Source of the DNA: a bacterium | GTDB lineage: Bacteria; JAJVIF01 | DNA: 64,000 bases | Assembly (NCBI GenBank): GCA_022072165.1 | Contig: JAJVIF010000001.1 | Coordinates: 1,489,353-1,553,352 of the forward strand | Reading direction: 5' to 3' | In this document: in pieces, positions 8,985-60,462 of the stretch | Layout: each line of letters opens with the position of its first letter | Position numbering within the stretch: the stretch's first letter is position 1 | Translations under genes and position numbers: made by a program | Notes under the pieces: generated by a model | What the model saw: the letters and a program-made list of their open reading frames with translations, nothing else | Told to the model about the DNA's origin: nothing | The model's database searches: none

Positions 8985-9349
8985 TGGTGGAGACGGCGGG
9001 AGTCGAACCCGCGTCCGAATCAGGGTCCACCACGTCTCTTCTTACGGGCGTAGTTCCAGATTAGTTCTTACATCCCCGGATGCTCTGGTCCCCTGGCCCC
9101 GGCGACGCCAGTCCGACTGGGGTTTCGGCACTGCCCTGCTCGGACAGACTCATCAGTGCCTACTCTCCAGTAAGGGTTGCACCTCACCCGACCCCTGGAG
9201 TACCAGGTCGGGATCAGCGTCGCGGTTTCTAGGCCGCGAGAGCGTAAGAAGCGTTGCCGTTTATAGGCGGTCCAGCGTTTTACGAGATGGCTGGGTTCTC
9301 GGCCCGAAGACGTAGCCAACCTGCTGACCGTCGAAACCGGTACGTCCCC
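8985..9349 (-). ncRNA. ssrA: tmRNA (SsrA)
   Basis: 5' end GGGGACGUACCGGUUUCGACGG. tRNA-like 3' end GGUUCGACUCCCGCCGUCUCCACCA. Internal tag ORF ...AAC GCU UCU UAC GCU CUC GCG GCC UAG encodes ...NASYALAA then stop. The overlapping 481-aa antisense ORF is spurious. Confidence 0.9.
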
Positions 9350-20508: not shown

Positions 20509-20541
20509 CCCGCATTAAGCAGTTGTGCCACAATCCCCGCC

Positions 20542-21618: not shown

Positions 21619-21654
21619 CACCTCCAGCTCACAAACCCAGTGCCAGGTGACAAC

Positions 21655-21683
21655 AAAAACTCCCGCCGGCGCCCGGCGGGAGT
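21655..21683 (-). terminator. Rho-independent terminator downstream of the Lys/Ala-repeat gene
   Basis: Perfect 10-bp stem CTCCCGCCGG/CCGGCGGGAG with loop CGC, followed on the minus strand by TTTTT. Confidence 0.7.
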
Positions 21684-21724
21684 GGGGAGTGTGTCCTGCC
21701 CATCGGGCAGGGCAGCCTCCGTGA

Positions 21725-22207
21725 CTACTTCTTGGCCGCAGACTTCTTGGCGGCGGCGGGCTTGGCAGCCGGCTTCTTGGCGGCGGCGGGCTTCGCAGCG
21801 GTCGCCTTCTTGACGGCCGGCTTCGCAGCCGTGGTCTTCTTGGCGGCGGGCTTGGCAGCCGTGGTCTTCTTGGCGGCGGCGGGCTTCGCAGCAGTCGCCT
21901 TCTTGACGGCCGGCTTCGCAGCCGTGGTCTTCTTGGCGGCGGCGGGCTTCGCAGCGGTCGCCTTCTTGACGGCGGGCTTCGCAGCCGCAGCCTTCTTGGG
22001 GGCGGCCGGCTTGGCAGCCGTGGTCTTCTTGGCGGCGGCCGGCTTCGCAGCGGCAGCCTTCTTGGGAGCGGCCGGCTTTGCAGCGGTCGCCTTCTTGGCG
22101 GCGGCGGGCTTGGCGGCGGTCGCCTTCTTGGCGGCCGGCTTCGCAGCCGTCGTCTTCTTGGCAGCAGCCGCGGGCTTCTTGGCCGCAGCCGGCTTAGGAG
22201 TAGCCAT
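21725..22207 (-). CDS. Histone H1-like Lys/Ala/Pro-repeat DNA-binding protein (AlgP/BpH1-like)
   Basis: 160 aa made almost entirely of ~21-aa repeats 'AAKPAAKKATAAKPAAAKKTT'. GGAGG RBS 8 nt upstream of ATG. Terminator just downstream. The overlapping R/P-rich 633-aa same-strand ORF and the plus-strand A/G/F ORF are frame artefacts of the same repeats. Confidence 0.65.
   Translation of the reverse strand: MATPKPAAAKKPAAAAKKTTAAKPAAKKATAAKPAAAKKATAAKPAAPKKAAAAKPAAAKKTTAAKPAAPKKAAAAKPAVKKATAAKPAAAKKTTAAKPAVKKATAAKPAAAKKTTAAKPAAKKTTAAKPAVKKATAAKPAAAKKPAAKPAAAKKSAAKK
21725..22207. repeat. ~63-bp imperfect tandem repeat array (about 7 units) encoding the KAAP repeats
   Basis: Recurring units …ggcttcgcagcggtcgccttcttgacggccggcttcgcagccgtggtcttcttggcggcggcg… are visible directly in the sequence. 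Confidence 0.8.
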
Positions 22208-22558
22208 GATTGAGTCCTCCGTGGTGGTCCCGCCAGGGGATCACCGGGTGTCATAAAAGGTGCTCGAACTGGTCGTCCCTTATCAGGACTCCCGGGAGCA
22301 GGGATCTGGCCTGCTCCCGCGAACCCTGACTTTGTCCCCGCTGCGTTCCATAATCTCCGCGAGCCAATAGTTGTGGTGCGGAATTCTGTGCAGCTTTGGA
22401 GCGTCTGGTGATACACCGGTGGGGAGAACGGTGGATGGTTCTCCCCCGATAGTCACCATAACGCGTAAATCTTACCGGCAGTTGATACACCACTGCAAGA
22501 ATGGCGCACCAACTTTCTGGACATCCCCCCACCCCCGTACGACTCCGCTGAGCGGGGG

Positions 22559-43467: not shown

Positions 43468-43938
43468 TCAGCCAGCGATGTTGATGTGTCGACGCGGCTC
43501 GGCTGCTGCGGGCTCGCTGTCAGCAACAGGAAGGACCGGGGGTTCCGTACGGGATTTGCCGATCACTTCTTCCCAGAGGTCCCGGACCTGTTCGGCGATC
43601 CGCTGCGCTTCCTCAAAGCGGGCGTCATCCTTGCGGATGTTGGCATCCAGCAGGATGTCGTAGACCAGATAGTAGATCCCCTGCAGATGCGGCACATAGT
43701 CCCCCGCTTCGGGATCGAGGGCGATGAGGAGCTCCAGATAGATGTTTTGCGCCTTGATGGTGGCGTTGTGGCAGGTATCGAGCGCGCCTTCCGCCAGAGC
43801 TTTGCGGGCCTGGTGAATGAATCCGACCGCGCCATGCAGCAGCGCCTGAAGCTTGCGCTCCGGAGTCGCGGCGTTGATGGACTGCTCCATGTAGGTTTGC
43901 TTGACGTCCATAAGCGCGCTGTTACGCCTCCTTCGCAC
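43468..43938 (-). CDS. fliS: Flagellin-specific chaperone FliS
   Basis: 'YMEQSINAATPERKLQALLHGAVGFIHQARKALAEGALDTCHNATIKAQNIYLELLIALDPEAGDYVPHLQGIYYLVYDILLDANIRKD' fits the FliS family pattern. True start is probably a few codons downstream. Confidence 0.8.
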   Translation of the reverse strand: MRRRRNSALMDVKQTYMEQSINAATPERKLQALLHGAVGFIHQARKALAEGALDTCHNATIKAQNIYLELLIALDPEAGDYVPHLQGIYYLVYDILLDANIRKDDARFEEAQRIAEQVRDLWEEVIGKSRTEPPVLPVADSEPAAAEPRRHINIAG

Positions 43939-45967
43939 TGACCACCGAGGATTCGACCAGGACCTGCCGGGCCTGACGGACTGCCGACTGCAGGGCCGGA
44001 CGGAGCCGCATCATCGCCTGTACCACACTGGCGTAGAGCTTCAGGTACGCCTCCAGCGCTTCCATGTAGACGTTGAAATTTGCCTGCTTGCCGCCGAGCG
44101 CCGCCTGCGCGTTGAGGAAGCTCTTGATGCCGGTCTGATTCGCCATCTCCAGCAACGTGGTCGCAAACCCATGCTTAAAAAGGCGCTTGCGCATGGCATC
44201 GGCGGCATGGAGTCGCTCAGCAGCGAGCCCCTCGGGCAGTCGCCCCAGGGTATGCATCGTGCGATACCACTCCGTGAGGTCGTTGAACGCCTGCCGGGCT
44301 TCGCGATCCAGGGACTCGAAGTCCGCCTGCAACTGATCTAACGACGCCATAAAACGTGGGAGGTCCCGCGTCTGCGGCTCACGACGGGCGGCGGCCAGGC
44401 GCTCCCAGACATCCAGCGGCTGCGTGCAGTATTCGCCTGCGACATCGCTGAAGTCGCGGACCTGGACCCCTTCTTTCAGGATGCCGCCGCCGGTGGCGTT
44501 GATGACTGTGATGTCGGGTGACGTATGGGCGATTTCCCGGACAAACCAGCGGTGGTAGGCGAACATCTGCCGGTTGGTCTGCACCGGCTGACCATAAATG
44601 TCGGTCAGGGTCATCAGCCGGCTGTCGTTAAGTCGCGCGGCCTGGGCTTCAGCGGTCATTTCATGGCCCAGTTCCGTCTCAAAGTAGGTCCCGGGGACGT
44701 AGGTACGCCCACCCGGGAACGAGAGGTCCTGCCCGAGGAAGATGATGGGATTCCCCCCGACTCGCCGGGCCAGGTCAAAGACCATCGTAGCCACTGAGCC
44801 CCAGCACAGGACCTGCCCCATTTCCCCGAGTTCCTGCTCGATCCAGTTCATCAGGCGGTCGCGGAACGAGGCAATAAAGAGCCGGTCGCCATACTCCGCC
44901 AGCGAGGCGGGATAGGTCATCGGTTCGGCGCAGAGGTAGGAAGGCACCTGGCTGGCGAGTCCGGCGATGTGCCGGTGGTTCGCTTCCTGGGGGTCGCCAG
45001 CGCAGATCAGATGCGGGGTGATGCCCGCATTGAGCAGCGGCCTCAGAGCGGTGTCGCAGGCGATGATCAGACAGCGGTCCTGCACCTGACGCAGGGTCGG
45101 TAGGGTCTGCTCCAGGCTCGGACCAGCCGCAACACAGACTACCGGCACGTTCCCAAAGCGATCAAAGAGCGTATTGACTCCTGGACTTCGGACCAGATGC
45201 GGCACGCTCTGTAACGTGTTGCTCAGGTACACATGCGCCATCACCATCAGGGTCTGCAGGTTCCCCGCGACCGTGTGCATGTAGCCCCGGATCTGATCCA
45301 TGAGCTGTGCGGCGAAACCTTCTGGAAGACGACGATCAACATTGGGCGATGACACAAAGGCGATGCCGCTGGCATGGACCATCGAAAAGCGGGTCGCCCA
45401 GGTGGAGAAAGCCTGCTCCTGGGTCGGACGAACCAGCAGCGTGACCCGGGGATCCCCCAGCAATGCTGCGAGAGGGCGATCCATCAGTGCCAGGCGGGCG
45501 CAGAGGAAGTCCGGCTCGATGATGAGGAGTTGTCCATCCGAAGGAAGCGCGGCCAGCGCCGCTTCCGCGACATACCCCAGGCCGAGACCGAACACGACCG
45601 CGTTGCCCCGGCGTGCGACTTCCGCCGCCTCGACGAGGTCACGAGCTTCAGCACCAGGGTCGTACTTCGAGTGGAGCCAGAGCTGGGCAGCGTCTGAACG
45701 GGCCTGGAGGGTGAGGTCGCCGGACCGGGCCGGCTCGATGAAGTATTGCCAGCCCCGGAGCCCCGCCGGTTGTTGCTGGAGTCCCAGTTGCTCCGCGAGG
45801 GCGAAGTCGTGGGCTGCGAGCGCTCGCAGATTCGCGGTGAGCAGGTCGGTGGGCTGCTCCACCATCAGCTGCGCGTTCATAGCCCCTCCCTGGGCGACCG
45901 GGGGACCGATCAGTTGACCGGCGGATCCCCCGATGACTTTTTGCTTCCCGGACGCGGGACCTGCCAC
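43922..45967 (-). CDS. maf: Motility-accessory-factor (Maf, DUF115/MptE-like) flagellin glycosyltransferase family protein
   Basis: ~650-aa protein with Maf-typical length and position next to pse genes and fliS/fliD. Central 6-hydroxymethylpterin-diphosphokinase-like DUF115 region. Start may be the internal ATG near 45880. Confidence 0.6.
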   Translation of the reverse strand: MAGPASGKQKVIGGSAGQLIGPPVAQGGAMNAQLMVEQPTDLLTANLRALAAHDFALAEQLGLQQQPAGLRGWQYFIEPARSGDLTLQARSDAAQLWLHSKYDPGAEARDLVEAAEVARRGNAVVFGLGLGYVAEAALAALPSDGQLLIIEPDFLCARLALMDRPLAALLGDPRVTLLVRPTQEQAFSTWATRFSMVHASGIAFVSSPNVDRRLPEGFAAQLMDQIRGYMHTVAGNLQTLMVMAHVYLSNTLQSVPHLVRSPGVNTLFDRFGNVPVVCVAAGPSLEQTLPTLRQVQDRCLIIACDTALRPLLNAGITPHLICAGDPQEANHRHIAGLASQVPSYLCAEPMTYPASLAEYGDRLFIASFRDRLMNWIEQELGEMGQVLCWGSVATMVFDLARRVGGNPIIFLGQDLSFPGGRTYVPGTYFETELGHEMTAEAQAARLNDSRLMTLTDIYGQPVQTNRQMFAYHRWFVREIAHTSPDITVINATGGGILKEGVQVRDFSDVAGEYCTQPLDVWERLAAARREPQTRDLPRFMASLDQLQADFESLDREARQAFNDLTEWYRTMHTLGRLPEGLAAERLHAADAMRKRLFKHGFATTLLEMANQTGIKSFLNAQAALGGKQANFNVYMEALEAYLKLYASVVQAMMRLRPALQSAVRQARQVLVESSVVSAKEA

Positions 45968-46963: not shown

Positions 46964-49900
46964 CTAGCGGGCTACGCTGATCCCTGACCCGGTCCCCTGC
47001 TGTTGCGCGCCGAGTCTGGCGGTCAGGAACTGACTGTCCCGCTGGAGCCGCGACAGCGCTCGCTCCACCTCCACGAACTGCTGCCGGATGCGGGCTTCGT
47101 AATCGGCCAGCCGCTCCTCAGCCCGACTCAACTCGGACCCCAATTCGGCGAGGCGCTGGTCCAGCACGCCGCCGGTGGTGATCTGCCGGTTAATGAGCCC
47201 GTTCAGACCGGTGAACTCTTTGAGGCTGTTCTCCAGACGACGTGCAATCCCTGCGGCAGCCTGGGCATCAGCCCCGAAAGTCGAGCCGCTGCTCAGGCCG
47301 ATGGTGTCCTGCAAACTGGCGCCGGCGTTGAGGTCCTGAATGGTGATGAGGGCTTTGCCGACCGTCTCGGTCCGGCTGAACTCCAGCCGCCCGGCGCTGT
47401 TGAGTCGAACGCCAATTTTGTCCGTGAGCCCCGCCTGTCCCAGGGCCGTGGTGATGCGATTGACCAGTTCGGCGCTGGTGTAGTACCCGGCATCAAGGGT
47501 GATGGTGGCGACATTGAGGGCATCGCCCACCGAGAACGAGAGGCGGCTGCCGAGGGTCAGTCCGAAATTCAGGTTGTTCTGGCTGGCGATGACGACTTTG
47601 GATTCCTGCGGATTGCCGAACAGCTGCTGCACGTCATTGGCACGATCTGTCAGCGACTCCCGCAGGGTCGCGTTGCTCTGCAGAGCCGTGAGAATCTCGT
47701 CGGGGTCCGTGGTGTCGGCCACCAGCCAGCCCTTTTGCAACTGGTCGTTCAGCACGCTGGTCCCGACACTTCCGGTATTCAGTCCCAGAGCACCCAGTCG
47801 ATTCAGTGCGGAAGTCACCGACACCACCGGCTCCAGGATCGCCCGGCGACTCTGGGTGACCGCCCGACGAATCGTCTGATCCCGATAAATGAGATCCCGC
47901 GTCAGCAGGGCTTCCCGTCGTGATTCGTATTCATCGATTTCCGCGAAGGTCAGGCTCTGCCGCTGGCGCTCCGTCAGTTCCCGGGTCTGTTCCACCTCAT
48001 CATCGTTCAGCGGCCGGGGATTCAGCAGCAGCAGGGTCTCGTTGTAGCTCACCACGAAATCCCGAATTGCGAGCAGCGACTTCTCGGTATCAACCGTGAT
48101 GTCGATGGCGACCGGGTCGGCACTGACACCAGTCAGATCCAGGGTGACATCGGGGAGAACATCCTTGATGGTGTTGGTGTTCCGGGTGTAGCTGACCCCA
48201 TCCAGGGTGAACTCGGCACTCCGACGCGGCGTACCGATGGTCGTGGTTACGGTCGGCGTGTTGGTCAGTCGCAGCGCAGCGAGGATGTTGGACGAGTCGG
48301 TCACGGCTCCGACCGTGATGCCGGTGGCGGTCGTGGACTCATCCAGCTTCTGCACCAGGCTGAGACGGTCCGTGACCGGGTCATAAGCGGCGGTGACTCC
48401 TGCCGGACTGTTGTTGATTTTCGTGATCAGCGACTGCAGCGTATCGACCCCAGAATCTACGGTCAGCGTGACACCGTTGATCGTGAATGTGCCGCTGGTG
48501 GGGGTGATGCTGAGATTTGATCCCGAAAGCGGGCTGGTGAGCGAAACAGTCCCGGCATCCGCGCCGGGAATCGAAGTGCCGCCGGCAGCTTCCAGCAGTC
48601 CGGCGATCCGCAGGAAATTCGACGTGTCGCCAGGCCCACCGAGGCGGATGCTCCCCTGCCCCGGCGTCGCGTTTTCCAGCGTGATGCGATCCAGCGCTTC
48701 GTCGTAGCGCGCGATGACTCCAGCCCCAGAGCTGTTGATCAGTCCCAGAACGCTGATCACGGTCTGGGTCGCGCTGGTGATGGCGATCACTTTTCCATTG
48801 ATGGTGAACGTGCCGTCAATGTGGTCAATGGCGTTGGTCGATGAGGACTCGACGGTTTGTGCGAACCCGGCATTGATGAGCCCTCGACCGATATCCAGGG
48901 GGGGCGTAGTGGTATTCGTCGACGCGCTGATCCCCGCCTGCCCCAGAATCGCGGCTTTCGTGGCGGGGGCCTGATTCAGTTCGCTGCTCTCGACGGTCCG
49001 GATCTGGGCGACCCCGGCGCTAAACGTGTTCCCCCCCACGCCATTGATCGTGATGCCAGGGATCAGTGTCGTGATGGCGGTCCCTTCCGCCTGACTGATG
49101 ACCGTGCGCTGTTCGGGGCCGCCATTCTCAGGAGTAAAGACCGACACTGCCGTGACATCAGCCGCCAGGGTCGTGGCGTTAGTGGTGGTGACATCGGTGT
49201 CGATGCCAGCGGTGGGATCAAGCAGCGTCTCAAGGATGCCCCCAGCCACATCGGTGAAGCGGAGATTTTCTCCCCCCCGGTTACTGCTGATTCTCAGAAA
49301 GACGCCACCGCCACCATCGTCCACGAGGGTCGCGGTCACCGAAGGGACCTGCCCATTGATCGCCGCGACCAGGTCCTGGACGCTGCTTTGCTCGGTGAGT
49401 CCGAGGATCACGACAGGCGAGGCTCCGCCGGTCCCGGCATCGCGGTCGATGGTGAATCGATTCCAGGTCGTGAGGCCGGGAATGGACCCCAGACGATCCT
49501 GTGGCTGGAGGGAGACGGTCCCGGTGACGGAACCTGCGAGGCCTTCGGAGAAGGTCAGCCGATGGCTCCCCCGGGCAGGGACCGAGAAGGCGGTACTGGT
49601 CGCAAGCTGGCGGGTTTCGGCAGCACCGGTCACCGAGCGGAACATCACCGGCAAAGTCAGGGTGTTCCCGGTCGGGCCACCGTTGTTGAAGGTCAACCCG
49701 AGGCGGGTCTGGCTGGGACCAGCGACCGCATCTGTGACCACGAGCTTGCCGTTTTCGATGGTGGCGAGGGCAGTCCCGGCGTACGCCGTGTTAATCGCTG
49801 CCACCAGATCGTTCAGCGTATGCCCGGCCCCATAGGTGTAGTTCGTGGTGACCAGCGTGCCATCGGGCTGGGTGACATTGAGCGTAATGGAATCCAGGCC

Positions 49901-50827
49901 ATCATCCAGCGACGCGCCGGTGAGCTGATCGAGATTGTTCAGAGGTGTGGTGCCATCGGCGACGACGGCGCTGTTGCCCGTCGTGAAGGTCACGGTCCCG
50001 GTCAGTTCCTGCGCGACTGCTGCGCCGCTTGCCTGGGTGGTCCCGAGGCCAATCGTGAAAGTCGAGCCTGAGAAGTCCGCGTCATTGAAGGTGAGTCCGC
50101 TCAAGGCGAAGTTCCCTGGCTGCGTGATGTCAGTTTCGGTCAGGACCAGTTCGCCCCGGGAGCCGAGCGTCACCTGCACTTCACCACCAAAGGCCGACTG
50201 GATCGTCTGCGTCAGTCGCTGGAGGGTATCGGTGCCGTTTCCCGCGAAAGTGAATGTGGCATTCACCGGTGTGCCATCTTTGCGGGAGCCAGCGATCGTG
50301 ATGGTGTCACCGGCGGTGACCTGTGCAGCGCCGCGCCCTGCCTGCAGGGTCTGGGTGAGCAGGTCGGTGGCTACCGCCCGGGTCCCGCTGAGCTGCTCGC
50401 TGCTGACCTGGATGTTGGAAATCCCGGCAGTGTTCCCCTGGGCGAGGAGCGCCGCCGCCCGGTCGAAGCTCCTGTCTGCAAGTCCGCTGACCGCCCGGGC
50501 ACCCTGTGCCAGTTGTGACACGGTCAGAATCGACTTCCCCGCCGTGGCGTTCAGCCCGGCGGTGATCCGCGCAATCGCTGGATTCGAAACCGCTGCTTTT
50601 TTGCTGAGGTAGGTCGACTCAAGGCGGAGGGCCAGACTGGTCCGTTGCAGCGACAGGAGCTGTGTATTCGCCAGCTGCAGCGTGGACTTCTGTTGCCTTG
50701 CCTGCGTGATCCGGGTCCCCAGAGCCGTGACCGGGAAGCGTCGGGCATCCACGATGGCGCTGACGATGGAGTTGGTGTCGATGCCGGAGGCGAGTCCGCC
50801 GAAGGTGACCGGCCCAAAGTTGACCAT
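46964..50827 (-). CDS. fliD: Flagellar filament cap protein FliD (giant, 1287 aa)
   Basis: N-terminus 'FGGLASGIDTNSIVSAIVDARRFPVTALGTRITQARQQKSTLQLANTQLLSLQ'. C-terminus 'GVLDQRLAELGSELSRAEERLADYEARIRQQFVEVERALSRLQRDSQFL'. Huge Thr/Gly-rich central region. Confidence 0.85.
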   Translation of the reverse strand: MVNFGPVTFGGLASGIDTNSIVSAIVDARRFPVTALGTRITQARQQKSTLQLANTQLLSLQRTSLALRLESTYLSKKAAVSNPAIARITAGLNATAGKSILTVSQLAQGARAVSGLADRSFDRAAALLAQGNTAGISNIQVSSEQLSGTRAVATDLLTQTLQAGRGAAQVTAGDTITIAGSRKDGTPVNATFTFAGNGTDTLQRLTQTIQSAFGGEVQVTLGSRGELVLTETDITQPGNFALSGLTFNDADFSGSTFTIGLGTTQASGAAVAQELTGTVTFTTGNSAVVADGTTPLNNLDQLTGASLDDGLDSITLNVTQPDGTLVTTNYTYGAGHTLNDLVAAINTAYAGTALATIENGKLVVTDAVAGPSQTRLGLTFNNGGPTGNTLTLPVMFRSVTGAAETRQLATSTAFSVPARGSHRLTFSEGLAGSVTGTVSLQPQDRLGSIPGLTTWNRFTIDRDAGTGGASPVVILGLTEQSSVQDLVAAINGQVPSVTATLVDDGGGGVFLRISSNRGGENLRFTDVAGGILETLLDPTAGIDTDVTTTNATTLAADVTAVSVFTPENGGPEQRTVISQAEGTAITTLIPGITINGVGGNTFSAGVAQIRTVESSELNQAPATKAAILGQAGISASTNTTTPPLDIGRGLINAGFAQTVESSSTNAIDHIDGTFTINGKVIAITSATQTVISVLGLINSSGAGVIARYDEALDRITLENATPGQGSIRLGGPGDTSNFLRIAGLLEAAGGTSIPGADAGTVSLTSPLSGSNLSITPTSGTFTINGVTLTVDSGVDTLQSLITKINNSPAGVTAAYDPVTDRLSLVQKLDESTTATGITVGAVTDSSNILAALRLTNTPTVTTTIGTPRRSAEFTLDGVSYTRNTNTIKDVLPDVTLDLTGVSADPVAIDITVDTEKSLLAIRDFVVSYNETLLLLNPRPLNDDEVEQTRELTERQRQSLTFAEIDEYESRREALLTRDLIYRDQTIRRAVTQSRRAILEPVVSVTSALNRLGALGLNTGSVGTSVLNDQLQKGWLVADTTDPDEILTALQSNATLRESLTDRANDVQQLFGNPQESKVVIASQNNLNFGLTLGSRLSFSVGDALNVATITLDAGYYTSAELVNRITTALGQAGLTDKIGVRLNSAGRLEFSRTETVGKALITIQDLNAGASLQDTIGLSSGSTFGADAQAAAGIARRLENSLKEFTGLNGLINRQITTGGVLDQRLAELGSELSRAEERLADYEARIRQQFVEVERALSRLQRDSQFLTARLGAQQQGTGSGISVAR

Positions 50828-50985: not shown

Positions 50986-53580
50986 CTAGCCCCGAAATAA
51001 CTGGAGGACGTTCTGCGGGAGCTGGTTGGCCTGCGCCAGGATGGCGGTGCCCGCCTGCAGGAGGATCTGCGACCGCGTGAACGCGATGGTCTCCTCCGCG
51101 ATGTTGAGATCCCGAATCCCCGACTCCGAAGAGGCGAGATTCTGCCGGGTGATGTCGAGGTTCCGGATGGTGCTCTCCAGGCGGTTTTGCACCGACCCCA
51201 GGTTGGACCGGAGGCTGGAGACCTTGTCGATGGCGACATCTACCGACGTGATCGCGGCCTGGGCGCTGGCGGAGTTCGCCAGGATCAGGCCCCGAATCCC
51301 CAGGCTGTCCGAGGAGACCCCGGATATCGCCAGCGTAAGATCCTGCCCCTGATTCGCGCCAATCTGGAAGTTGATGGCGTTGGGCACCAGGTGGAGGAAA
51401 GTGGTCCCGATGAAGTCGGAAGTCACCGAGATCGTGGGCTTGGCCAGGGGGTCGAGGTTAATCGGCCCGCGGGTGTCATTCGCCCCCGGTCCGGGGACCG
51501 GGTCGAGCTTGAAGCCCTGATTGGTGTTGAACTTCAGTTCCACGCCCCGAATGACGCCGCGAACAGTGCCATCCTGGGTGATGGTCTCGTCGATCAGCGC
51601 CCCGGTCTCGATATTCACGACACTGACTTTGAAGGTCGCCAGCTTGCTGTTCTGGATGGTGAAGAGCGACAGCGCGTTGATGGTCTTCTCATCGCCGATG
51701 AAGGCGAGTTCCGCGCCGGGCACCGGACTGGTGATGGAGATGGTTCCCTTCGCCGGACCGATGAGGTTGAAGTTCACCAGGTTCGGGAAGTTGCCACCCG
51801 CCAGCGTGTCCTCGAGGTTGAGGTCCGAGGTCCGGTTGGGATCGGCGATGGCGAGCGACAGCTTGCCGACCAGGTCCTGCACGGTGTCCGTGGCGTTGAG
51901 GAAGATCGTGGTGCGCCGTCCGGACCCCGGCACGGCCAGTCCGATTTCCACGGTGTCGCGTCCCAGGAAGACATTCTCTGCCTGGAAGCGGCTGATGGAC
52001 CGGAGCTGCGTGTCGAGCTGGGCCACCAGCACGTTGTTGGTCGACGTGTGGAAGATCGCGGTCTCGCCCGCTTCCAGGATGGCATCGAAGCTGATGCGCA
52101 GCCCCTGGAGGGTATCGAGATTCAGTGCGGCGGCCGTACCGGCGCGTCCGATAGAGCCGGTGCCGGACACCGAGCCCGTATCGAGGTTTGTCACCCGGTA
52201 GGTGCGATTGGACAGCGCAGACACCCGGAAGGTGTAGCTGCCGGACACCGCCGACACCTGCACGATCCGGCCATACTGCGCGAACTCGTTCTGCCCCGCC
52301 TTGTTGAAAACGATCTCATCGGTGCCGGTGGAAACACTGGCATCGAAGCGGACATCGATTTCACCCGTGGTGCTGTCGCCGAGCGTGAAGATGCCGCCCG
52401 CGACGTTCTCAATGATCCGGTTGCCGTTGGCGGTGATCGCCACCGACGCGGCATCGATGAAGGCTCGGGTGATGTCTGCCGCGCCCGCTGCGACCGAGAA
52501 AGCGGAGAAGCCGAGGTCGAGCTGGGAGCCGGAAGTATCGACATCTTCCAGGCCGAAGAACGAGAGCGCGATGCTCTGTCCCGCCGCGATCGAAACGGCC
52601 AGTTGCCCGGTGCCGGTCACACTGAACGCGCCGTTGGCACCAATGGAGAAGGCGATGCTCAGGAAGGCGGCCACACTGGAAAGCGTCGTACCCGCGGTGA
52701 TCAACAGCGCGGCATCGACAGTCGAGCCGTTCACACGCTCGCCGCGGACCCGCAGACGGTCTACACCGAGGGTCAGCTCCTTGGCGTTGAAAGTCCCCGC
52801 CAGGTCGTCCGCAGCAACAGCCACAGAGGTCCCCAGCACCGAGATAGTCGCGCTGCCATAGGAGACCAGGAGGCGGCCATTGGTGGTAGTGCTCTGGATT
52901 TCCAGCTCATCAATGCCGATCTGGGAGCCGGTGGCGTTCCGGAAGGAGGCATTGTTGAGGTAGGTGGTCAGCCCGTTGAACGACCCGACCCGATCCTCAG
53001 TGGCGATGGTGTTGAACTGGTCGGTCTTGTAGGTCGCCAGTTCCGGCGGCGCCAGCAGGGTAGTCCGGATCTGGAAGTTGCCACCTTTGCCAACATTCCC
53101 CAGGATGTTGACCTGGACAGTCGAGGGGTCATCCAGGGAGTAGAGGGCCGCAGCGGACCCATCGAGGAGCCGCTTGGTGTTGAACTCCGTGGTCCGGGCG
53201 ATCCGGTCGACCTCGTCGATCAGCTGGTCCACTTCCTTCTGGATTTCGAGGCGGTCGCTGGAGGTGAGGACTCCGTTCGCCGCCTGGATCGCCAGTTCGC
53301 GGATCCGTTGCAGGATCGTGTTGGTCTCGGCCAGCGCCCCTTCCGCCGTCTGGAGGAGGCTGATCCCCTCCGAGGCATTCTGGGACGCCCGGGCGAGTCC
53401 CCGGACCTGCGCCCGCAGGCGCTCCGAAATCGTGAGACCGGCGGCGTCATCCGCCGCCCGGTTGATTCGCAAGCCGGTGGAGAGTCGTTCGACGGATCGC
53501 TCCAGGTGCCGGCTGGTCTGCGCCAGACTGCGGGTCGCATTCAGCGCAATGATGTTCTGATTGATCTGCAGGACACCCAC
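50986..53580 (-). CDS. fliC: Flagellin (giant, ~865 aa), paralog 1
   Basis: GTG start at 53580 with GGAGG 10 nt upstream. N-terminus 'GVLQINQNIIALNATRSLAQTSRHLERSVERLSTGLRINRAADDAAGLTISERLRAQVRGL'. C-terminus 'RSNLGSVQNRLESTIRNLDITRQNLASSESGIRDLNIAEETIAFTRSQILLQAGTAILAQANQLPQNVLQLF'. The track ORF extends upstream without support. Confidence 0.9.
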   Translation of the reverse strand: MGVLQINQNIIALNATRSLAQTSRHLERSVERLSTGLRINRAADDAAGLTISERLRAQVRGLARASQNASEGISLLQTAEGALAETNTILQRIRELAIQAANGVLTSSDRLEIQKEVDQLIDEVDRIARTTEFNTKRLLDGSAAALYSLDDPSTVQVNILGNVGKGGNFQIRTTLLAPPELATYKTDQFNTIATEDRVGSFNGLTTYLNNASFRNATGSQIGIDELEIQSTTTNGRLLVSYGSATISVLGTSVAVAADDLAGTFNAKELTLGVDRLRVRGERVNGSTVDAALLITAGTTLSSVAAFLSIAFSIGANGAFSVTGTGQLAVSIAAGQSIALSFFGLEDVDTSGSQLDLGFSAFSVAAGAADITRAFIDAASVAITANGNRIIENVAGGIFTLGDSTTGEIDVRFDASVSTGTDEIVFNKAGQNEFAQYGRIVQVSAVSGSYTFRVSALSNRTYRVTNLDTGSVSGTGSIGRAGTAAALNLDTLQGLRISFDAILEAGETAIFHTSTNNVLVAQLDTQLRSISRFQAENVFLGRDTVEIGLAVPGSGRRTTIFLNATDTVQDLVGKLSLAIADPNRTSDLNLEDTLAGGNFPNLVNFNLIGPAKGTISITSPVPGAELAFIGDEKTINALSLFTIQNSKLATFKVSVVNIETGALIDETITQDGTVRGVIRGVELKFNTNQGFKLDPVPGPGANDTRGPINLDPLAKPTISVTSDFIGTTFLHLVPNAINFQIGANQGQDLTLAISGVSSDSLGIRGLILANSASAQAAITSVDVAIDKVSSLRSNLGSVQNRLESTIRNLDITRQNLASSESGIRDLNIAEETIAFTRSQILLQAGTAILAQANQLPQNVLQLFRG

Positions 53581-53864: not shown

Positions 53865-53989
53865 AGCCAGGAAATGAAGAAAGGTGGGGCTGGCACTCGA
53901 ACAGCCACTGGCGGTCACACTGCGTCTTCAGGGCGTTCAAACTGAAACTGCGATGTAAGAAAATTTACTGAATCTCATGCCGAAACCCC

Positions 53990-54018
53990 TTGACGCGGCC
54001 TTAACGAGACGGCATATT
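53990..54018 (+). promoter_or_regulatory. Sigma-70-like promoter for Cys-rich cassette 1
   Basis: TTGACG-17 nt-CATATT about 40 nt upstream of ATG 54059. AT-richer context than the surrounding sequence. Confidence 0.4.
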
Positions 54019-54058: not shown

Positions 54059-54511
54059 ATGTTGTTCAGAGTGTTCCTCGTGATCCTCTGTACGCTGGGT
54101 TTCTCAGGATCGACTCTCGCGCCCGCCCAGGCGGCGGACTGCTGTTGTTACCGGACCAGTGTCGTGCTGTGGGAGGACTGGTGGTATTGCCAGGTGGACT
54201 GCACACAGCAGGACCCCGCAGAGCTGTGCAAAATCAGGAAGCGCTGCCAGGGCTATACCGTCTCAGGAAAGTGCAAAACGAGCTGGTTCAGTTGCCTGGG
54301 GCACACGATGCTCTCGTGCGGATCAGCACCGGTCACCGGACAAGTCACCTGTGAGTATGAACTGGTGAATCCGGAAGATCCCAACTGTGTTGCAGACCCG
54401 GAGCAGATCGCGCTCTGCATCAACATCGACTGCCCAACTGCACCGCCGCCAGGCGAGTACCACTGCAATCTGGGCGGACCCTGCTGTGACACAAGTGGTA
54501 ACTGCTCATGA
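54059..54511 (+). CDS. Secreted small cysteine-rich protein (CCCYR family), copy 1
   Basis: GGAGG RBS. Signal peptide 'MLFRVFLVILCTLGFSGSTLAPAQA'. Mature ~125 aa with ~18 Cys: 'DCCCYR…YCQVDCTQQDPAELCKIRKRCQGYTVSGKCK…CCDTSGNCS'. Paralog of 55785..56240. Confidence 0.75.
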   Translation: MLFRVFLVILCTLGFSGSTLAPAQAADCCCYRTSVVLWEDWWYCQVDCTQQDPAELCKIRKRCQGYTVSGKCKTSWFSCLGHTMLSCGSAPVTGQVTCEYELVNPEDPNCVADPEQIALCINIDCPTAPPPGEYHCNLGGPCCDTSGNCS

Positions 54512-55569
54512 AGCCCGAGCGTACCGTTGTCGCACATCTGTTCAATCGGAAGGAGAGTCCTGAATTGCGTACCCTGATCCTGTTCGTTTTGTGTCTGGTG
54601 TTCGCGGGGTGCTCGGCGAAGCGCACCAACAACACCACGACATCGCAGGATGTTATCGCTGCACCAAACCATGCCCTGACTCTGGTGCAGCAGTTCACGC
54701 CGGCTGATGAAGAGGCTCAGTGGTACCTCGCGGGGGACCCCCGGGCCATCGCGTTTGTACAGAGCAGCCGGATGAGCAGTGCTTTCGAATGGGCCATCAC
54801 TGGCTACCTGCGGGCGTATGGGCATCTGCCAGCCACTGTGGATGATCTGCTGGAGAGTGGCCTGGTGCTCTTCACACCGACTCGCCCGGATGGCACCCCG
54901 TATCCGTTCCAGGTGGTCCAGACGCTGCCCGAAGAGCCATCGACCGAAGCAGTACTGCTTGCCAAGGAAGGGGCGATCCTGCGGGGATGGTTACCTCCCG
55001 TCGATGCCAGCGTGAAGGCACGCCGCATCTATGTCAATCTGGATAAGCGCTACCAGATGTACAACTCGCGGCAGACGGTCATGCCGACCGTACCGCAGGC
55101 TGTCCTCGCGAATCGGGTCGCGCAGCAGGCATCCATCGGGGGCCTCTCACCAGGTGCCTTCGCCAACCAGTTCCTGCATCAGTCGGATGGACTGGAGGAG
55201 CAACGGGCGGTCGCGCTGCTGGCTGCGAGCATCGGACTGATGAGCATGGATGCGCAGGCCCGGGGTCGGGTGGCGACCTCGCTGGAAGCCGTCCTGCAGG
55301 CGCATCGTCTCGCGTTTCGCGATGTCGCGACCGTCACCGGAAATGTCGATCTGCTGGACTATCCTCTGGGAGTGCAATTGCGGACCTCGACAGACCGGAA
55401 TCTGCTCCAGATCGCCATCAAGCCGAGTATCGAGGGACTGGATTACCAGTTGCTGAAGTTCATGCCGGATTACTCACTTGGGCGCGTCACGAAGCTGGAT
55501 TTGTCAGGCGATGTCGCACCGCAGGAGGCCGGGTGTCACGACCTGGTCGCGACCCTCGTGCTGCAGTAG
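54508..55569 (+). CDS. Putative lipoprotein partner of Cys-rich protein, copy 1
   Basis: ATGA overlap with the upstream gene. Lipobox 'LVFAGC'. Paralog of 56275..57273: shared '…G(Y)YR..G.LP….LLE.GL…' region and C-terminal 'GC.(E/D)(V/L)(L/V).TL(L/V)L'. Confidence 0.65.
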   Translation: MKPERTVVAHLFNRKESPELRTLILFVLCLVFAGCSAKRTNNTTTSQDVIAAPNHALTLVQQFTPADEEAQWYLAGDPRAIAFVQSSRMSSAFEWAITGYLRAYGHLPATVDDLLESGLVLFTPTRPDGTPYPFQVVQTLPEEPSTEAVLLAKEGAILRGWLPPVDASVKARRIYVNLDKRYQMYNSRQTVMPTVPQAVLANRVAQQASIGGLSPGAFANQFLHQSDGLEEQRAVALLAASIGLMSMDAQARGRVATSLEAVLQAHRLAFRDVATVTGNVDLLDYPLGVQLRTSTDRNLLQIAIKPSIEGLDYQLLKFMPDYSLGRVTKLDLSGDVAPQEAGCHDLVATLVLQ

Positions 55570-55607
55570 TTTCCCCCAGAGCGAGAGGTGTGACGGGGAA
55601 GTGGCCG

Positions 55608-55645
55608 AGCCCGGGAGTCCGCTCCCGGGCTCGCGTGTTGCTGGA
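55608..55645 (+). terminator. Possible terminator after cassette 1
   Basis: Stem GAGCCCGGGAG/CTCCCGGGCTC with loop TCCG, followed by GCGTGTTGCTGG, which is only weakly U-rich. Confidence 0.4.
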
Positions 55646-55712
55646 GGGGGAATGAGCCAGCTTCCTGTGCAGTCACAGGCTGCAAATTACCCAGGAAAGC
55701 CGACTTACTTAG

Positions 55713-55747
55713 TTGACAAGAGAGAGAGAGAGAGAGAGAGAATATCT
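55713..55747 (+). promoter_or_regulatory. Putative promoter of Cys-rich cassette 2 with (AG)11 tract in the spacer
   Basis: Consensus TTGACA at 55713-55718, then (AG)11, then AATATCT. The spacer between -35 and the candidate -10 'ATATCT' is about 23 nt, against an optimal 17. Confidence 0.45.
55719..55740. repeat. (AG)11 dinucleotide microsatellite
   Basis: Perfect 22-nt AG tract read directly from the sequence. No other dinucleotide tract of this length occurs in the window. Confidence 0.95.
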
Positions 55748-55784
55748 CCACTCATAGAACGTCGAGCGTAGGAGGTCTTACAGG

Positions 55785-56240
55785 ATGCGCGCGTACTTCG
55801 CTTTGCTGAGCACGCTGATGGTTCTCTTCCTTTTCGCCATTCCTTCTGAAGCTTCGCAGCAGTGTTGCTGCTACAGAATTGTGAGCTTTAGCTGGATTGG
55901 CCTAAACGTATGCGACGTTGACTGTACTGAAGCTGACCCCCCAGAGCTTTGTGAAGTGGAAAAGTACTGTTGGGGGACCAACGTCAACGGCAAGTGCAAG
56001 AGCCACTCTGGGTCTTGCGGAATTGGGAACTGGACGCCTACGAACTGTGGTTCGACAGGGCAGTATGGTTCCTATACGTGCACACTCACACCAACTAATC
56101 CCAACGACCCGGCCTGCTTCGATACGGAAGAGGAACTACGCCTCTGTATTGAAGTAAACTGCTTACCGGACCCCAATCCCACCTCATACACCTGCCCGCT
56201 GGGTGGCACCTGCTGTCACGCAAACGGGAACTGCAAATAG
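55785..56240 (+). CDS. Secreted small cysteine-rich protein (CCCYR family), copy 2
   Basis: GGAGG RBS. Signal peptide 'MRAYFALLSTLMVLFLFAIPSEA'. 'QQCCCYR…VCDVDCTEADPPELCEVEKYCWGTNVNGKCK…CCHANGNCK'. Cys positions align with copy 1. GC visibly lower (~50%) than the window. Confidence 0.75.
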   Translation: MRAYFALLSTLMVLFLFAIPSEASQQCCCYRIVSFSWIGLNVCDVDCTEADPPELCEVEKYCWGTNVNGKCKSHSGSCGIGNWTPTNCGSTGQYGSYTCTLTPTNPNDPACFDTEEELRLCIEVNCLPDPNPTSYTCPLGGTCCHANGNCK

Positions 56241-56274
56241 CCCACTCTTTTACTCAAGACTGGAGGTCTTCGCC

Positions 56275-57273
56275 ATGAAGTTCACCCCGATTCTCCTGAT
56301 CTGCGGCGTCGTGTTGATGGGCTGTCAGCAGGCCCGCGAGCAAGCTGCACCCGCGGCACCAAAGGAACCCACCGCCGCACCCGTTGCACAGGGTTTTGAG
56401 CCTTCCAATGCCATCTCTCGAGGATTGCTGGCAGGCGATATGGCCAGCCGGCAGACGGTTCGCACGAGTCTTCTCAAGGGCGAGTTGATGCACGCCGCGC
56501 TGGGGTACTACCGAATGATGGGCGAGTTGCCATCGCACGCAGCGCCACTGCTGGAGCAGGGTCTGCTGATGCACACCACCACGGACAGCAGCGGTCAGGC
56601 GATGCCCTGCCAGGCGGTCGACTCGCTGCCAACGGAGGCGGCCGCAGACCGGATGCTCCTTGCGATCGAAGGCGACCGGCTGCGGGCCTGGATCCCAGCT
56701 CTGGGAGAGGGAGCCCCTGCCCGCATTGCGGAGATTGCGATGTCCGGTCAAGTGCAGACACGGGCAGTCAGGGAGATCGGGCAACTGCCACTGCAGGATG
56801 CCGTTCTGCTAAAAGAGGAGTTGCGGCAGGCCGCCGCCGAGTCAGGCGGGCCTGCCAACGCCGGAGTGAATCAGTACATTCATCGTTCCCGGGGTGCTGC
56901 AGAGCAGCGACTGAGAGCGCTGAACTGGGCGAGCCTCGGCGTGTTGAATCGCGGCGCCGCGATCCTCGGACGCGCCCCGGAATCGTATGGGGAGGTGCTC
57001 CCCATGCTGGGACTGGCACCGTTGGGGTATCGCCTGGAAGATGGTCCAGTGAAGCTGCTGGAACAGCCGCTGGGTGTCCAGTACATCGCGACCCTGGATC
57101 GTCAGCGGGTGCTGATGTATCAGAAGCCCTCCATGCCTGCGCTGGACTACCAGATGCTGCAGTACGTCCCTGATGCGCGGACTGGGGAAGTCGCCATGTC
57201 CGAAGTGGGCGACACCATTGTTCCGGAGAGTTCAGGCTGTACCGAGGTACTGGGGACGCTGCTGTTGCCATAA
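56275..57273 (+). CDS. Putative lipoprotein partner of Cys-rich protein, copy 2
   Basis: GGAGG RBS before ATG 56275. Lipobox 'VLMGC'. Paralog of 54508..55569. Confidence 0.65.
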   Translation: MKFTPILLICGVVLMGCQQAREQAAPAAPKEPTAAPVAQGFEPSNAISRGLLAGDMASRQTVRTSLLKGELMHAALGYYRMMGELPSHAAPLLEQGLLMHTTTDSSGQAMPCQAVDSLPTEAAADRMLLAIEGDRLRAWIPALGEGAPARIAEIAMSGQVQTRAVREIGQLPLQDAVLLKEELRQAAAESGGPANAGVNQYIHRSRGAAEQRLRALNWASLGVLNRGAAILGRAPESYGEVLPMLGLAPLGYRLEDGPVKLLEQPLGVQYIATLDRQRVLMYQKPSMPALDYQMLQYVPDARTGEVAMSEVGDTIVPESSGCTEVLGTLLLP

Positions 57274-57870: not shown

Positions 57871-60462
57871 CTACCGGAAGAGCTGCAGCGCGTTCTGCGG
57901 CAGCTGATTGGCCTGCGCCAGGACCGCCGTCCCAGCCTGCAACAGGATCTGGTTGCGGGTGAAGGCGAGGGTCTCCTCCGCGATGTTGAGGTCGCGGATG
58001 CCGGATTCCGACGCCGCCAGATTCTGTCGGGTGATCTCCAGGTTCCGGATCGTGCTCTCCAGGCGGTTCTGCACGGACCCAAGATTTGACCGGAGGCTGG
58101 AAACCTTGTCGATAGCGACATCGACCTTGGTGATCGCCGCCTGCGCGCTGTCGGTGTTCGCCAGAATCAGGCCTTTGAGGCCCAGGCTCTGGCTGGAGAC
58201 GCCCGCGATGGCGAGGGTCAGATCCTGTCCCTGATTCGCGCCAATCTGGAAGTTGATGGCGTTGGGCACCAGGTGCAGGAAGTTGGTGCCGACAAAGTTC
58301 GACGAAATCGAGATCGTCGGCTTGTCGAGCGGGTCGAGGTTGATGGGGTTGCGGGTGTCGTTCTGGCCGGTACCGTTCACCGGATCGAGCTTGTACCCCT
58401 GGGTGGTGTCGAAGTTGATCTCCACGCCCCGGATGACACCCCGGACGAAGCCGTCGGTGGTCTTCAGGGACTGCACCAGGGCTCCCGACTCCACATCCAC
58501 AATGCTCACCTGGTACGACGGGAGCTTGCTGTTCTGGATGGTAAAGAGGGAGAGGGCGTTGAGGGTCTTCTCATCGCCGATGAAGGCGAGTTCGGCCCCC
58601 GGCACCGGGCTGGTGATGGAGATGGTCCCCTTTGCCGGACCGGTGAGGTTGAAGTTCACCAGGTTCGGGAAGTTCCCCCCTGCGAGGGTGGCTTCGAGGT
58701 TGAGGTCGTTGGTCCGGTTCGGGTCGGCGATGGCCAGCGAAATCTTGCCGACCAGGTCCGCCACCGTATCGGTCGCGTTGAGATAGATGGTGGTGCGGCG
58801 TCCCTGACCGGGGACCGCGAGTCCGATTTCCACGGTATCGCGCCCGGTGAAGACCCCTTCCGCCTGGAAGCGGCTGATGGACTTCAGCTGGGTGTCGAGC
58901 TGGGCGACCAGCACGTTGTTGGTGGAGGTGTGGAAGATCGCGGACTCGCCCGCCTCCAGGATGGCATCGAAGCTGAGGCGCAGGCCCTGCAGCGTGTCGA
59001 GACCCAGCGATGCGGCAGTCCCGGCCCGTCCGATGGACCCGGTCCCGGAGACCGAGCCGGTGTCGAGGTTCGTCACGCGGTAGGTCCGGTTCGAGAGCGC
59101 CGAAATCCGGAAGGTGTAGCTCCCGGAGACCGCCGACACCTGGACCAGCGTGCCGTATTGCGCAAACTCGTTCTGTCCCAGCGTGTTGAAGACCAGTTCG
59201 TCGGTGCCGGTGGTGACATCGGCGCTGAAGCGGATGTCGATCTCGCCCGTCGAGCTGTTGCCCAGGGTGAAGATGCCGCCGGTGACGTTCTCAATGACCC
59301 GGTTGCCGTTGGCGGTGATCGCCACCGACGCCGCATCGATGAAGACCCGGGAGATATCGGAGCCGCCGGCCGCCACGGACAACGGGGTAAACCCGAGGTC
59401 GAGCGTCGATCCCGAGTTGTCGAGATCATCCAGCCGGAACGAGCTGATGGCGATGCTCTGGCCCGCCCCAATCGAGACCGCGAGGGTTCCGGTGCCGGTG
59501 ACGCTGAACGCGCCGTTGGCACCCACGGAGAACGCGAGGCTCATGAAGGCGGCGACACTTCCCAGCGTGGTCCCAGCGGTGATCAGGAGGGAGGCATCGA
59601 CTGCCGCCCCACCGGTGTTGGTCCCGGTCACGCGCAGGCGGTCGACCCCGAGGGTGATCTCCTTCGCATTGAAAGTCCCGGCCAGGTCATCGGCAGCAAC
59701 CGCCACCGAGGTCCCGAGCACGGAGACGGTCGCGCTCCCGAAGGAAACCAGGAGCCGGCCATTGGTGGTGGTGCTCTGGATTTCCAGTTCGTCGATGCCG
59801 ATCGCCGTCCCCGTCCCGCTGCGGAACGTGGCGTTGTTGAGGTAGGTGGTCAGGCCGTTAAACGAGCCCACCCGGTCCTCGGTGGCGATGGTGTTGAACT
59901 GGTCGGTCTTGTAGGTCGCCAGCTGCGGGGCGTCCAGCAGGGTGGTCCGGATCTGGAAGTTCCCCCCCTTGCCGACATCGCCCAGGATATTGACGCTGAC
60001 GGTCGTGGGGTCGTCCAGGGAGTAGAGGGCGGCCGCCGAGCCATCCAGGAGTCGCTTGGTGTTGAACTCCGTGGTGCGGGCAATGCGATCGACCTCGTCG
60101 ATCAGCTGATCGACTTCCTTCTGGATTTCGAGCCGGTCGTTGGAAGTGAGGACACCGTTCGCGGCCTGGATCGCCAGCTCGCGAATCCGCTGGAGGATGG
60201 TGTTGGTCTCCCCCAGCGCGCCTTCCGCCGTCTGGAGGAGACTGATCCCCTCCGAGGCATTCTGCGACGCCCGGGCCAGGCCCCGGACCTGCGACCGGAG
60301 TCGCTCGGAAATCGTGAGACCGGCGGCGTCATCCGCAGCGCGGTTGATGCGCAGGCCAGTGGAAAGCCGCTCGACAGAACGTTCCAGCGCTTTGCTGGTC
60401 TGGGAGAGGCTGCGGGTCGCGTTGAGTGCGATGATGTTCTGATTGATCTGCAGAACACCCAT
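57871..60462 (-). CDS. fliC: Flagellin (giant, 863 aa), paralog 2
   Basis: ATG 60462 with GGAGG RBS. About 85% amino-acid identity to paralog 1 over the full length, including the central domain. Confidence 0.9.
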   Translation of the reverse strand: MGVLQINQNIIALNATRSLSQTSKALERSVERLSTGLRINRAADDAAGLTISERLRSQVRGLARASQNASEGISLLQTAEGALGETNTILQRIRELAIQAANGVLTSNDRLEIQKEVDQLIDEVDRIARTTEFNTKRLLDGSAAALYSLDDPTTVSVNILGDVGKGGNFQIRTTLLDAPQLATYKTDQFNTIATEDRVGSFNGLTTYLNNATFRSGTGTAIGIDELEIQSTTTNGRLLVSFGSATVSVLGTSVAVAADDLAGTFNAKEITLGVDRLRVTGTNTGGAAVDASLLITAGTTLGSVAAFMSLAFSVGANGAFSVTGTGTLAVSIGAGQSIAISSFRLDDLDNSGSTLDLGFTPLSVAAGGSDISRVFIDAASVAITANGNRVIENVTGGIFTLGNSSTGEIDIRFSADVTTGTDELVFNTLGQNEFAQYGTLVQVSAVSGSYTFRISALSNRTYRVTNLDTGSVSGTGSIGRAGTAASLGLDTLQGLRLSFDAILEAGESAIFHTSTNNVLVAQLDTQLKSISRFQAEGVFTGRDTVEIGLAVPGQGRRTTIYLNATDTVADLVGKISLAIADPNRTNDLNLEATLAGGNFPNLVNFNLTGPAKGTISITSPVPGAELAFIGDEKTLNALSLFTIQNSKLPSYQVSIVDVESGALVQSLKTTDGFVRGVIRGVEINFDTTQGYKLDPVNGTGQNDTRNPINLDPLDKPTISISSNFVGTNFLHLVPNAINFQIGANQGQDLTLAIAGVSSQSLGLKGLILANTDSAQAAITKVDVAIDKVSSLRSNLGSVQNRLESTIRNLEITRQNLAASESGIRDLNIAEETLAFTRNQILLQAGTAVLAQANQLPQNALQLFR

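Follow-up and report, generated by a model that had tools for sequence, protein, structure and literature searches.

Does a run of AG dinucleotides between the two elements of a bacterial promoter switch the genes behind it on and off? The question is raised by a locus in which a perfect match to the -35 consensus is followed directly by eleven AG units and then by a candidate -10 element, upstream of the second of two paralogous gene cassettes (cys1-lip1 and cys2-lip2). An earlier interpretation made from the letters alone (here, the sequence-only reading) had taken the tract for a slippage-driven ON/OFF switch. We analyzed the whole stretch of DNA that contains it (the window; 64,000 nucleotides, 64% G+C) together with related contigs of the same lineage and of other lineages. 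The host is a MAG (protein MCG3152041.1) in which a DUF1501 gene is present, and none of its housekeeping proteins has a named relative closer than about 45% identity (alanine racemase). To our knowledge, host-adapted pathogens account for nearly all known cases of promoter switching driven by repeats. The explanation that we favor, with moderate confidence, is that the tract is a slippage-prone spacer microsatellite that would act as a graded tuning knob for the cys2-lip2 promoter.

The repeat tract and the cassettes on either side

The sequence at 55713-55747 reads TTGACA AGAGAGAGAGAGAGAGAGAGAG AATATCT. Tandem Repeats Finder placed the repeat at 55719-55741 (period 2, 11.5 copies, 100% match), and the same tract was present in contigs of nine separate sequencing runs, all of them metagenome assemblies. 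Both results confirm the original description of (AG)11 directly after TTGACA and beside a candidate -10. The rarity claimed for long dinucleotide tracts was borne out as well. The runner-up dinucleotide repeat in the window has 5 units, which leaves (AG)11 as its sole long microsatellite; 100 dinucleotide-preserving shuffles of the window contained no tract-like match, even with 3 mismatches allowed; and no dinucleotide repeat of at least 6 units was found in 1.12 Mb from 69 unrelated flagellin loci. The tract is non-random and real, and it is not an assembly artifact, because it is identical in nine independent runs. Repeats of at least about 8 dinucleotide units are regarded as long and pure enough for instability, and (AG)11, at 100% purity, is among them.

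The tract sits in the 215-nt gap that separates the two cassettes, 3' of the lip1 terminator hairpin and 44 nt 5' of the cys2 ATG (Table 1). Both cassettes consist of one gene for a secreted Cys-rich protein (~150 aa) and one for a lipoprotein (~340 aa); between copy 1 and copy 2, the Cys-rich proteins are 41% identical and the lipoproteins 33%. Pfam gave no match for either protein. Among 5.8 billion protein clusters, only those of the two paralogs belong to the Cys-rich family, and a search of 1.84 billion representative proteins gave the lipoprotein only about 23 relatives, all of them distant and unannotated. A lipoprotein profile scan of GTDB representative genomes found no relatives, and the cassette was absent from all 69 loci of the flagellin scan (GTDB). 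Because both scans were without the cassette, there is no orthologous promoter to compare outside the species complex. JGI metagenome contigs were also searched twice with patterns for the flanks of the tract, allowing any tract length. There was no match in either search, although one of the contigs compared here, L077, is itself a JGI contig, so that the collection scanned evidently does not hold these samples. AlphaFold models were too poor for fold searches (pLDDT of 43 for cys2 and 39 for lip2). When the window was compared with other lineages, dN/dS was 0.22-0.24 for cys2 and 0.17-0.18 for lip2, similar to the values for copy 1. These ratios indicate purifying selection on cys2 and lip2 in the window, L077, and L079 lineages, which argues that both genes are probably expressed and functional.

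The cassette locus (54059-57273) is hypervariable between strains (L077, L079, L080, and L081) whose FlaG is 98-100% identical. At the lip1 position, L077 has a third type of lipoprotein, with 48% amino acid identity to the window lip1 and 34% to lip2. There is only one cassette in L080, and copy 2 of L081 consists of remnants, namely, a cys2 with an internal deletion and the stretch of lip2 that encodes its C-terminal 89 aa. The synonymous divergence of the lipoprotein genes is about 0.27-0.31, which is 3-4 times that of flaG. One contig of the window lineage, L001 (SRR14117728), has 19 differences from the window in 60 bp at 53869-53927 (about 860-920 in L001); elsewhere, its identity to the window is about 99.9%. 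The variant patch lies between the sigma-28 promoter of flagellin 1 and the promoter of cys1, closely resembles the L080 lineage, and looks like a short recombination import.

The cassettes lie within a large flagellar locus, flanked by two 863-aa flagellin genes and flaG. The same sigma-28-type motif, CTCAAG-N14-GCCGATAC (60823-60796 and 53866-53840, minus strand), precedes each of the giant flagellin genes, about 325 nt and about 250 nt 5' of their start codons, which implies unusually long leaders. The start of flagellin 1 is most likely the GTG at 53580 and not the mechanical ORF start at 53940. Elsewhere in the window, a 33-nt tandem repeat (21743-22162; about 13 copies, 80% identity) lies within an ORF at 20515-22416 on the minus strand and encodes an Ala/Lys-rich repeat.

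Table 1. Positions of the features discussed, numbered from the first nucleotide of the window
Feature	Position	Strand	Remarks
tmRNA gene	8985-9349	-	Rfam RF00023, 143 bits; sole Rfam match in the window
FlgL-like gene	25756-28479	-	907 aa; unusually large
PseD-like flagellin-modification gene	43922-45967		near the filament genes
FliD-like gene	46964-50827	-	1287 aa; unusually large
Two flagellin genes	50986-53580, 57871-60462	-	about 863 aa; unusually large
Copy-1 promoter TTGACG-17-CATATT	53990-54018	+	reference architecture
Cassette copy 1	54059-55569	+	cys1 54059-54511, lip1 54508-55569; stop and start codons overlap
lip1 terminator hairpin	55606-55633	+	perfect inverted repeat 55606-55617/55622-55633; 12-bp G+C-rich stem, 4-nt loop
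Conserved upstream block GCAGTCACAGGCTGCAAA	55669-55686	+	one position changed across lineages; surrounding intergenic DNA ~21% different
Predicted -35 hexamer TTGACA	55713-55718	+	6/6 match to consensus; TTGACG in other lineages and in copy 1
(AG)11 microsatellite plus A	55719-55740, extra A at 55741	+	pure homopurine dinucleotide repeat, 22 bases of AG
Best -10 candidate GAGAAT	55738-55743	+	A2 and T6 present; overlaps the 3' end of the tract
AATATC	55741-55746	+	counterpart of AATACT, the best -10 in L077/L081 (18-nt spacer); T6 lost
Conserved leader block CACTCATAGAACGTCGAGC	55749-55767	+	19/19 identical in window, L077, and L079; flanks ~21% divergent
Shine-Dalgarno AGGAGG	55770-55775	+	9 nt 5' of the ATG
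cys2	55785-56240	+	151-aa secreted Cys-rich orphan protein; cassette copy 2
lip2	56275-57273	+	332-aa predicted lipoprotein, lipobox LMGC; cassette copy 2

Predicted promoter elements around the tract

A promoter for copy 2 is expected within 55640-55784, because the terminator hairpin closes lip1. Candidate sites were ranked by a rough position-weight score built on sigma-70 consensus frequencies, and this score puts TTGACA-19-GAGAAT first in the window. The sequence-only reading had instead paired TTGACA with ATATCT (55742-55747), which matches TATAAT at one of six positions, and its 23-nt spacing rests on that choice. GAGAAT matches at four of six positions, is invariant across all four lineages with copy 2, and gives a spacing of 19 nt; it is also the top-scoring -10 in L079, where the spacer is 17 nt. 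Two further boxes overlap this region, the alternative -10 GAATAT (55740-55745) at 21 nt and AATATC at 22 nt from TTGACA. The view that the tract occupies the spacer of the most plausible copy-2 promoter, and that this spacer exceeds the 17-nt optimum, is supported, but not with ATATCT as the -10. The loss of three repeat units once thought to bring the spacer to 17 nt must be revised in the same way: counted from GAGAAT, one unit is enough, and the result is the spacing of the L079 allele.

The copy-1 promoter had been described as having a fixed 17-nt spacer, and this description held in all five lineages compared. In TTGACG-17-CATAYT, the -35, the spacing, and A2 and T6 of the -10 are kept, and the other -10 positions vary. 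The copy-1 -10 is followed by six variable bases and then by a conserved leader. When GAGAAT is taken as the -10, copy 2 has the matching layout of -35, -10, six variable nucleotides, and conserved leader, and its transcription is predicted to start near A55750. The conserved block GCAGTCACAGGCTGCAAA, about 27 nt 5' of the -35 hexamer, is a possible regulator site or UP-like element. A palindrome that overlaps this block, CCTGTGCAGTCACAGG (55664-55679), was rejected as an operator because it is specific to the window lineage and not conserved.

GTTGAC is kept in all four lineages that bear copy 2; by itself, the conservation of TTGAC does not reach statistical significance. This genome shows no enrichment of sigma-70 consensus matches (6 in 60 kb versus about 7.5 expected from shuffles), and the host belongs to an uncharacterized deep lineage; for these reasons, the assignment of the hexamers rests on conservation and on the analogy with copy 1. 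With that support, we infer the two hexamers and the start site. The tract lies between predicted -35 and -10 elements that are conserved between lineages, and it is most likely the spacer of the cys2-lip2 promoter.

Several other kinds of control element were considered and rejected. A sigma-28 (FliA) promoter for copy 2 was judged against the reference motif TAAA/TCAA-N15-GCCGATAA-like, of which the CTCAAG motifs of the locus's own two flagellin genes are examples. The upstream sequence GCCGACTT is a poor match (5/8), lacks a -35 partner at N14-15, and is unconserved, its counterparts in other lineages being AACCGAAT or ACCCGAAT. For copy 1, the sigma-28 motif GCCGAAAC was likewise unconserved. 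A MerR-type promoter, with its long spacer of 19-20 bp, was rejected because the spacer here is a mirror repeat without a dyad operator; the sole inverted repeat within 55570-55790 is the terminator. A switch of the coding-frameshift type was rejected because the ORFs over the tract (55478-55771, plus strand; 55536-55751, minus strand) are not conserved in frame. These ORFs also span the terminator and the end of lip1, and their frames differ between lineages.

The tract could in principle act through something other than its length, as a transcribed leader element, as an H-DNA triplex under supercoiling, or as the site of an unknown GA-specific protein. A perfect 23-nt homopurine mirror repeat, conserved in sequence beyond mere length and with a conserved block upstream of it at 55669-55686, is what such a role might look like. 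If the tract were transcribed, however, it would be unpaired, and RNA folding of the region was no better than that of shuffled sequence (z = 0.54). In addition, Rfam gave no family match to the tract region at gathering or permissive thresholds except for a chance hit on the terminator, no better promoter candidate was found upstream of the tract in any lineage scored, and the spacer has no inverted repeat of the MerR-operator type. Length steps of whole units and alternative -10 boxes one unit apart fit an effect on spacing more simply, and we consider a role independent of length very unlikely.

Repeat number across lineages and populations

Assemblies of the window lineage were retrieved by exact-protein look-ups from nine runs that represent about seven accession series (SRR14117728, SRR23375770, SRR23375771, SRR23908894, SRR28263012, SRR35657375, SRR10609164, SRR10609168, and SRR27760789). 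They show 0 to 27 differences from the window over about 5 kb and comprise at least 5 SNP haplotypes, and TTGACA-(AG)11-AATATC is identical in all nine. The repeat number that is constant within this lineage differs between lineages. When the window allele is written as TTGAC-AA(GA)11-ATA, the L079 allele is TTGAC-(GA)11-ATACTTG and is 2 nt shorter. L077 and L078 have TTGAC-(GA)4GT(GA)5-ATACTTG, which is interrupted and 4 nt shorter than the window, and L081 has TTGAC-(GA)5GC(GA)4-ATACTTG, which is also 4 nt shorter but has a different interruption; L080 is without copy 2. The distance from TTGAC to ATA is 24, 22, 20, and 20 nt in the four lineages, and all of the differences are multiples of 2. 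Across the ~130 other aligned intergenic bases there is just one indel, of 1 nt, and length changes are otherwise confined to the tract. Substitutions are few there as well, with at most 1 in 20-22 nt versus 21.5% of flank sites different (P about 0.03-0.05). Because the lengths differ between lineages by whole repeat units, slippage has clearly changed the length of the predicted spacer in evolution; the alleles indicate that the spacing was reset by slipped-strand mispairing between lineages at least twice.

Promoter scores were compared across these alleles. The best scores were comparable, at 13.3 for the window (TTGACA-19-GAGAAT), 13.9 for L079 (TTGACG-17-GAGAAT), 13.3 for L077 and L081 (TTGACG-18-AATACT), and 14.6 for copy 1; an automatic promoter scan likewise picks the sites of L077 and L079. 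In the window lineage, the -35 matches the consensus in full (TTGACA versus TTGACG elsewhere), and AATACT is changed to AATATC. When the number of AG units was varied in the window background, the best score was 11.8 with 8 units, 15.0 with 9, 16.2 with 10, 13.3 with 11, and 11.3 with 12. The predicted response to unit number is thus graded, not binary, and its optimum would lie at one or two units fewer than the tract now has.

The model that we favor is built on a sigma-70-type cys2-lip2 promoter in which TTGACA, 19 nt, GAGAAT, and 6 nt would be followed by a start near 55750, and in which (AG)11 would form almost the whole of the operon's promoter spacer. Gain or loss of an AG unit would shift the -35 relative to two overlapping -10 boxes (GAGAAT; GAATAT or AATAYY) and so would alter promoter strength stepwise, with the strongest promoter at 9-10 units, a weaker one at 11, and a very weak one at 12 or more. 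The tract would then be an evolutionary tuning knob that is reset between lineages and held at 11 units in all sampled populations of the window lineage. Here we infer both the effect of spacer length on transcription and an appreciable rate of slippage at present. Against this model, the tract may be quite stable and the 19-nt spacing simply tolerated, because all nine assemblies, with their 5 or more haplotypes, have 11 units.

The slippage switch first proposed goes further than a tuning knob. In a true contingency locus, slippage would be reversible at about 1e-5 to 1e-3 per division, so that cys2-lip2 would be ON in subpopulations with 9-10 units, low in those with 11, and OFF from 12 units upward, and its expression would be stochastic. 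The part of this proposal that survives is slippage itself, in the form of whole-unit changes between lineages; the graded score and the 11 units found in 9/9 assemblies speak against a switch. Pure dinucleotide tracts of 11 units are inherently unstable through slipped-strand mispairing, and this tract is pure despite 21% divergence of its flanks, as if mutability had been selected. Further, the exchange, loss, and decay of cassettes and the recombination imports at this locus are typical of surface-exposed contingency genes. On the other hand, tract length at classical phase-variable loci usually varies from strain to strain, and two lineages here have tracts that are interrupted and thus stabilized. 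One length in nine runs, about seven accession series, and at least 5 haplotypes is atypical of such loci, and could be explained if one length is favored in bulk.

The sole hint of heterogeneity within a population comes from consensus contigs of run SRR35657375. There, contig L083 ends at 55748 and contig L006 starts at 55719, so that the two overlap by exactly 30 nt, which we take to be k-1 for Logan's k=31 assembly. The break is a graph branch at the node (AG)11AATATCTC, as a coexisting minor allele of at least 12 units would give, but stutter during PCR or sequencing, or a SNP at position 55749, could explain this lone break equally well. Taken together with the graded response, these observations lead us to regard a true contingency locus as unlikely, and to prefer the slowly reset tuning knob.

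A second objection to the tuning knob concerns the terminator upstream. The T-tail of the lip1 terminator (55634-55645) is degraded in the window lineage, where it reads GCGTGTTGCT and fails the T-run criterion of the terminator scan. In L077 (3542-3551) and L079 (2644-2653), the tail after this hairpin is CGTTTTGTTT, and the scan accepts the site as a terminator; the tails read TGTTGCT in the window versus TTTTGTTT in these two lineages. With the degraded tail, transcription may run on more often out of cassette 1 and into cassette 2, and the lineage concerned is the very one whose promoter spacer is longest; the weakened tail would allow expression without the copy-2 promoter. Carried to its end, this argument makes the tract a bystander in a decaying promoter, a neutral expansion in a dispensable paralog whose transcripts come mostly from the copy-1 promoter by read-through, with tract length of little effect. 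That copy 2 is dispensable is suggested by its absence from L080 and its remnants in L081; moreover, AATACT has lost its T6 in the window, the spacer is 2 nt above the optimum, and consensus promoter matches are poorly informative in this genome. Such neglect fits poorly, however, with dN/dS values of 0.17-0.24 for cys2 and lip2 in the window, L077, and L079, and with a tract, TTGAC, GAGAAT, and leader that are conserved above the level of the flanks. In addition, the -35 became a perfect TTGACA in the longest-spacer lineage alone, which looks compensatory, and the 12-bp G+C-rich hairpin is still present. We therefore hold the bystander explanation to be improbable and retain the spacer model.

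Known repeat-controlled genes and significance

Slipped-strand mispairing and unstable repeat tracts have been reviewed (PMC3899988, PMC11868660), and among the known systems this locus is closest to the (TA)n of hifA/hifB and the poly-G of porA; the repeat unit and the organism are new. In the fimbrial promoter of Haemophilus influenzae hifA/hifB, (TA)n lies between the -35 and -10 (PMC3899988). There, as predicted here, the spacer is a dinucleotide repeat that changes in 2-nt steps, and the outcome is graded or OFF expression of a surface structure. However, the unit is TA there and AG here, the promoter described here is unidirectional, and hif switching has been shown experimentally, whereas the present locus is a candidate in an uncultured, G+C-rich environmental bacterium. 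Homopolymer tracts occupy promoter spacers at porA and opc of Neisseria meningitidis, fim of Bordetella pertussis, and vlp of Mycoplasma hyorhinis (PMC3899988). In these cases, as proposed here, a repeat in the promoter core sets the spacing and thereby the transcript level, and the output of porA is graded. They differ in that the repeats are mononucleotides that change in 1-nt steps, in host-adapted pathogens with many such loci; here there is one known tract, and the genes are orphans. The repeat unit itself has precedents in coding regions, as 12 AG repeats in the Type III mod gene of Mycoplasma mycoides (PMC3498834) and as CT repeats in oipA of Helicobacter pylori (PMC10564699). These AG/CT tracts of about 11-12 units show that such repeats slip at useful rates in bacteria. 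They lie in reading frames, though, and act by frameshift as translational ON/OFF switches, in contrast with the present tract, which is outside any conserved frame and would act on transcription.

Comparative evidence of the kind available here, with a conserved near-pure tract, differences of exact units, and a usable -10 for each length, is rare for predictions of this type. It is doubtful, though conceivable, that the locus is a genuine contingency locus in a deep-branching environmental bacterium, in which selection keeps a pure (GA)n that stochastically grades how strongly one of the two orphan cassettes between the giant flagellin genes is expressed, both cassettes being fast-evolving and exchangeable. 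If so, a plausible purpose would be bet-hedging, by surface change, against phage or predators, and repeat-driven phase variation would extend well beyond host-adapted pathogens. Confirmation of length heterogeneity at the read level would mean that contingency loci operate also in free-living, G+C-rich bacteria, and would suggest that this orphan Cys-rich/lipoprotein pair of a flagellar locus has a function under fluctuating selection. Without such confirmation, the locus would still be a clean natural case in which the length of a microsatellite serves as a slow tuning knob of promoter spacing.
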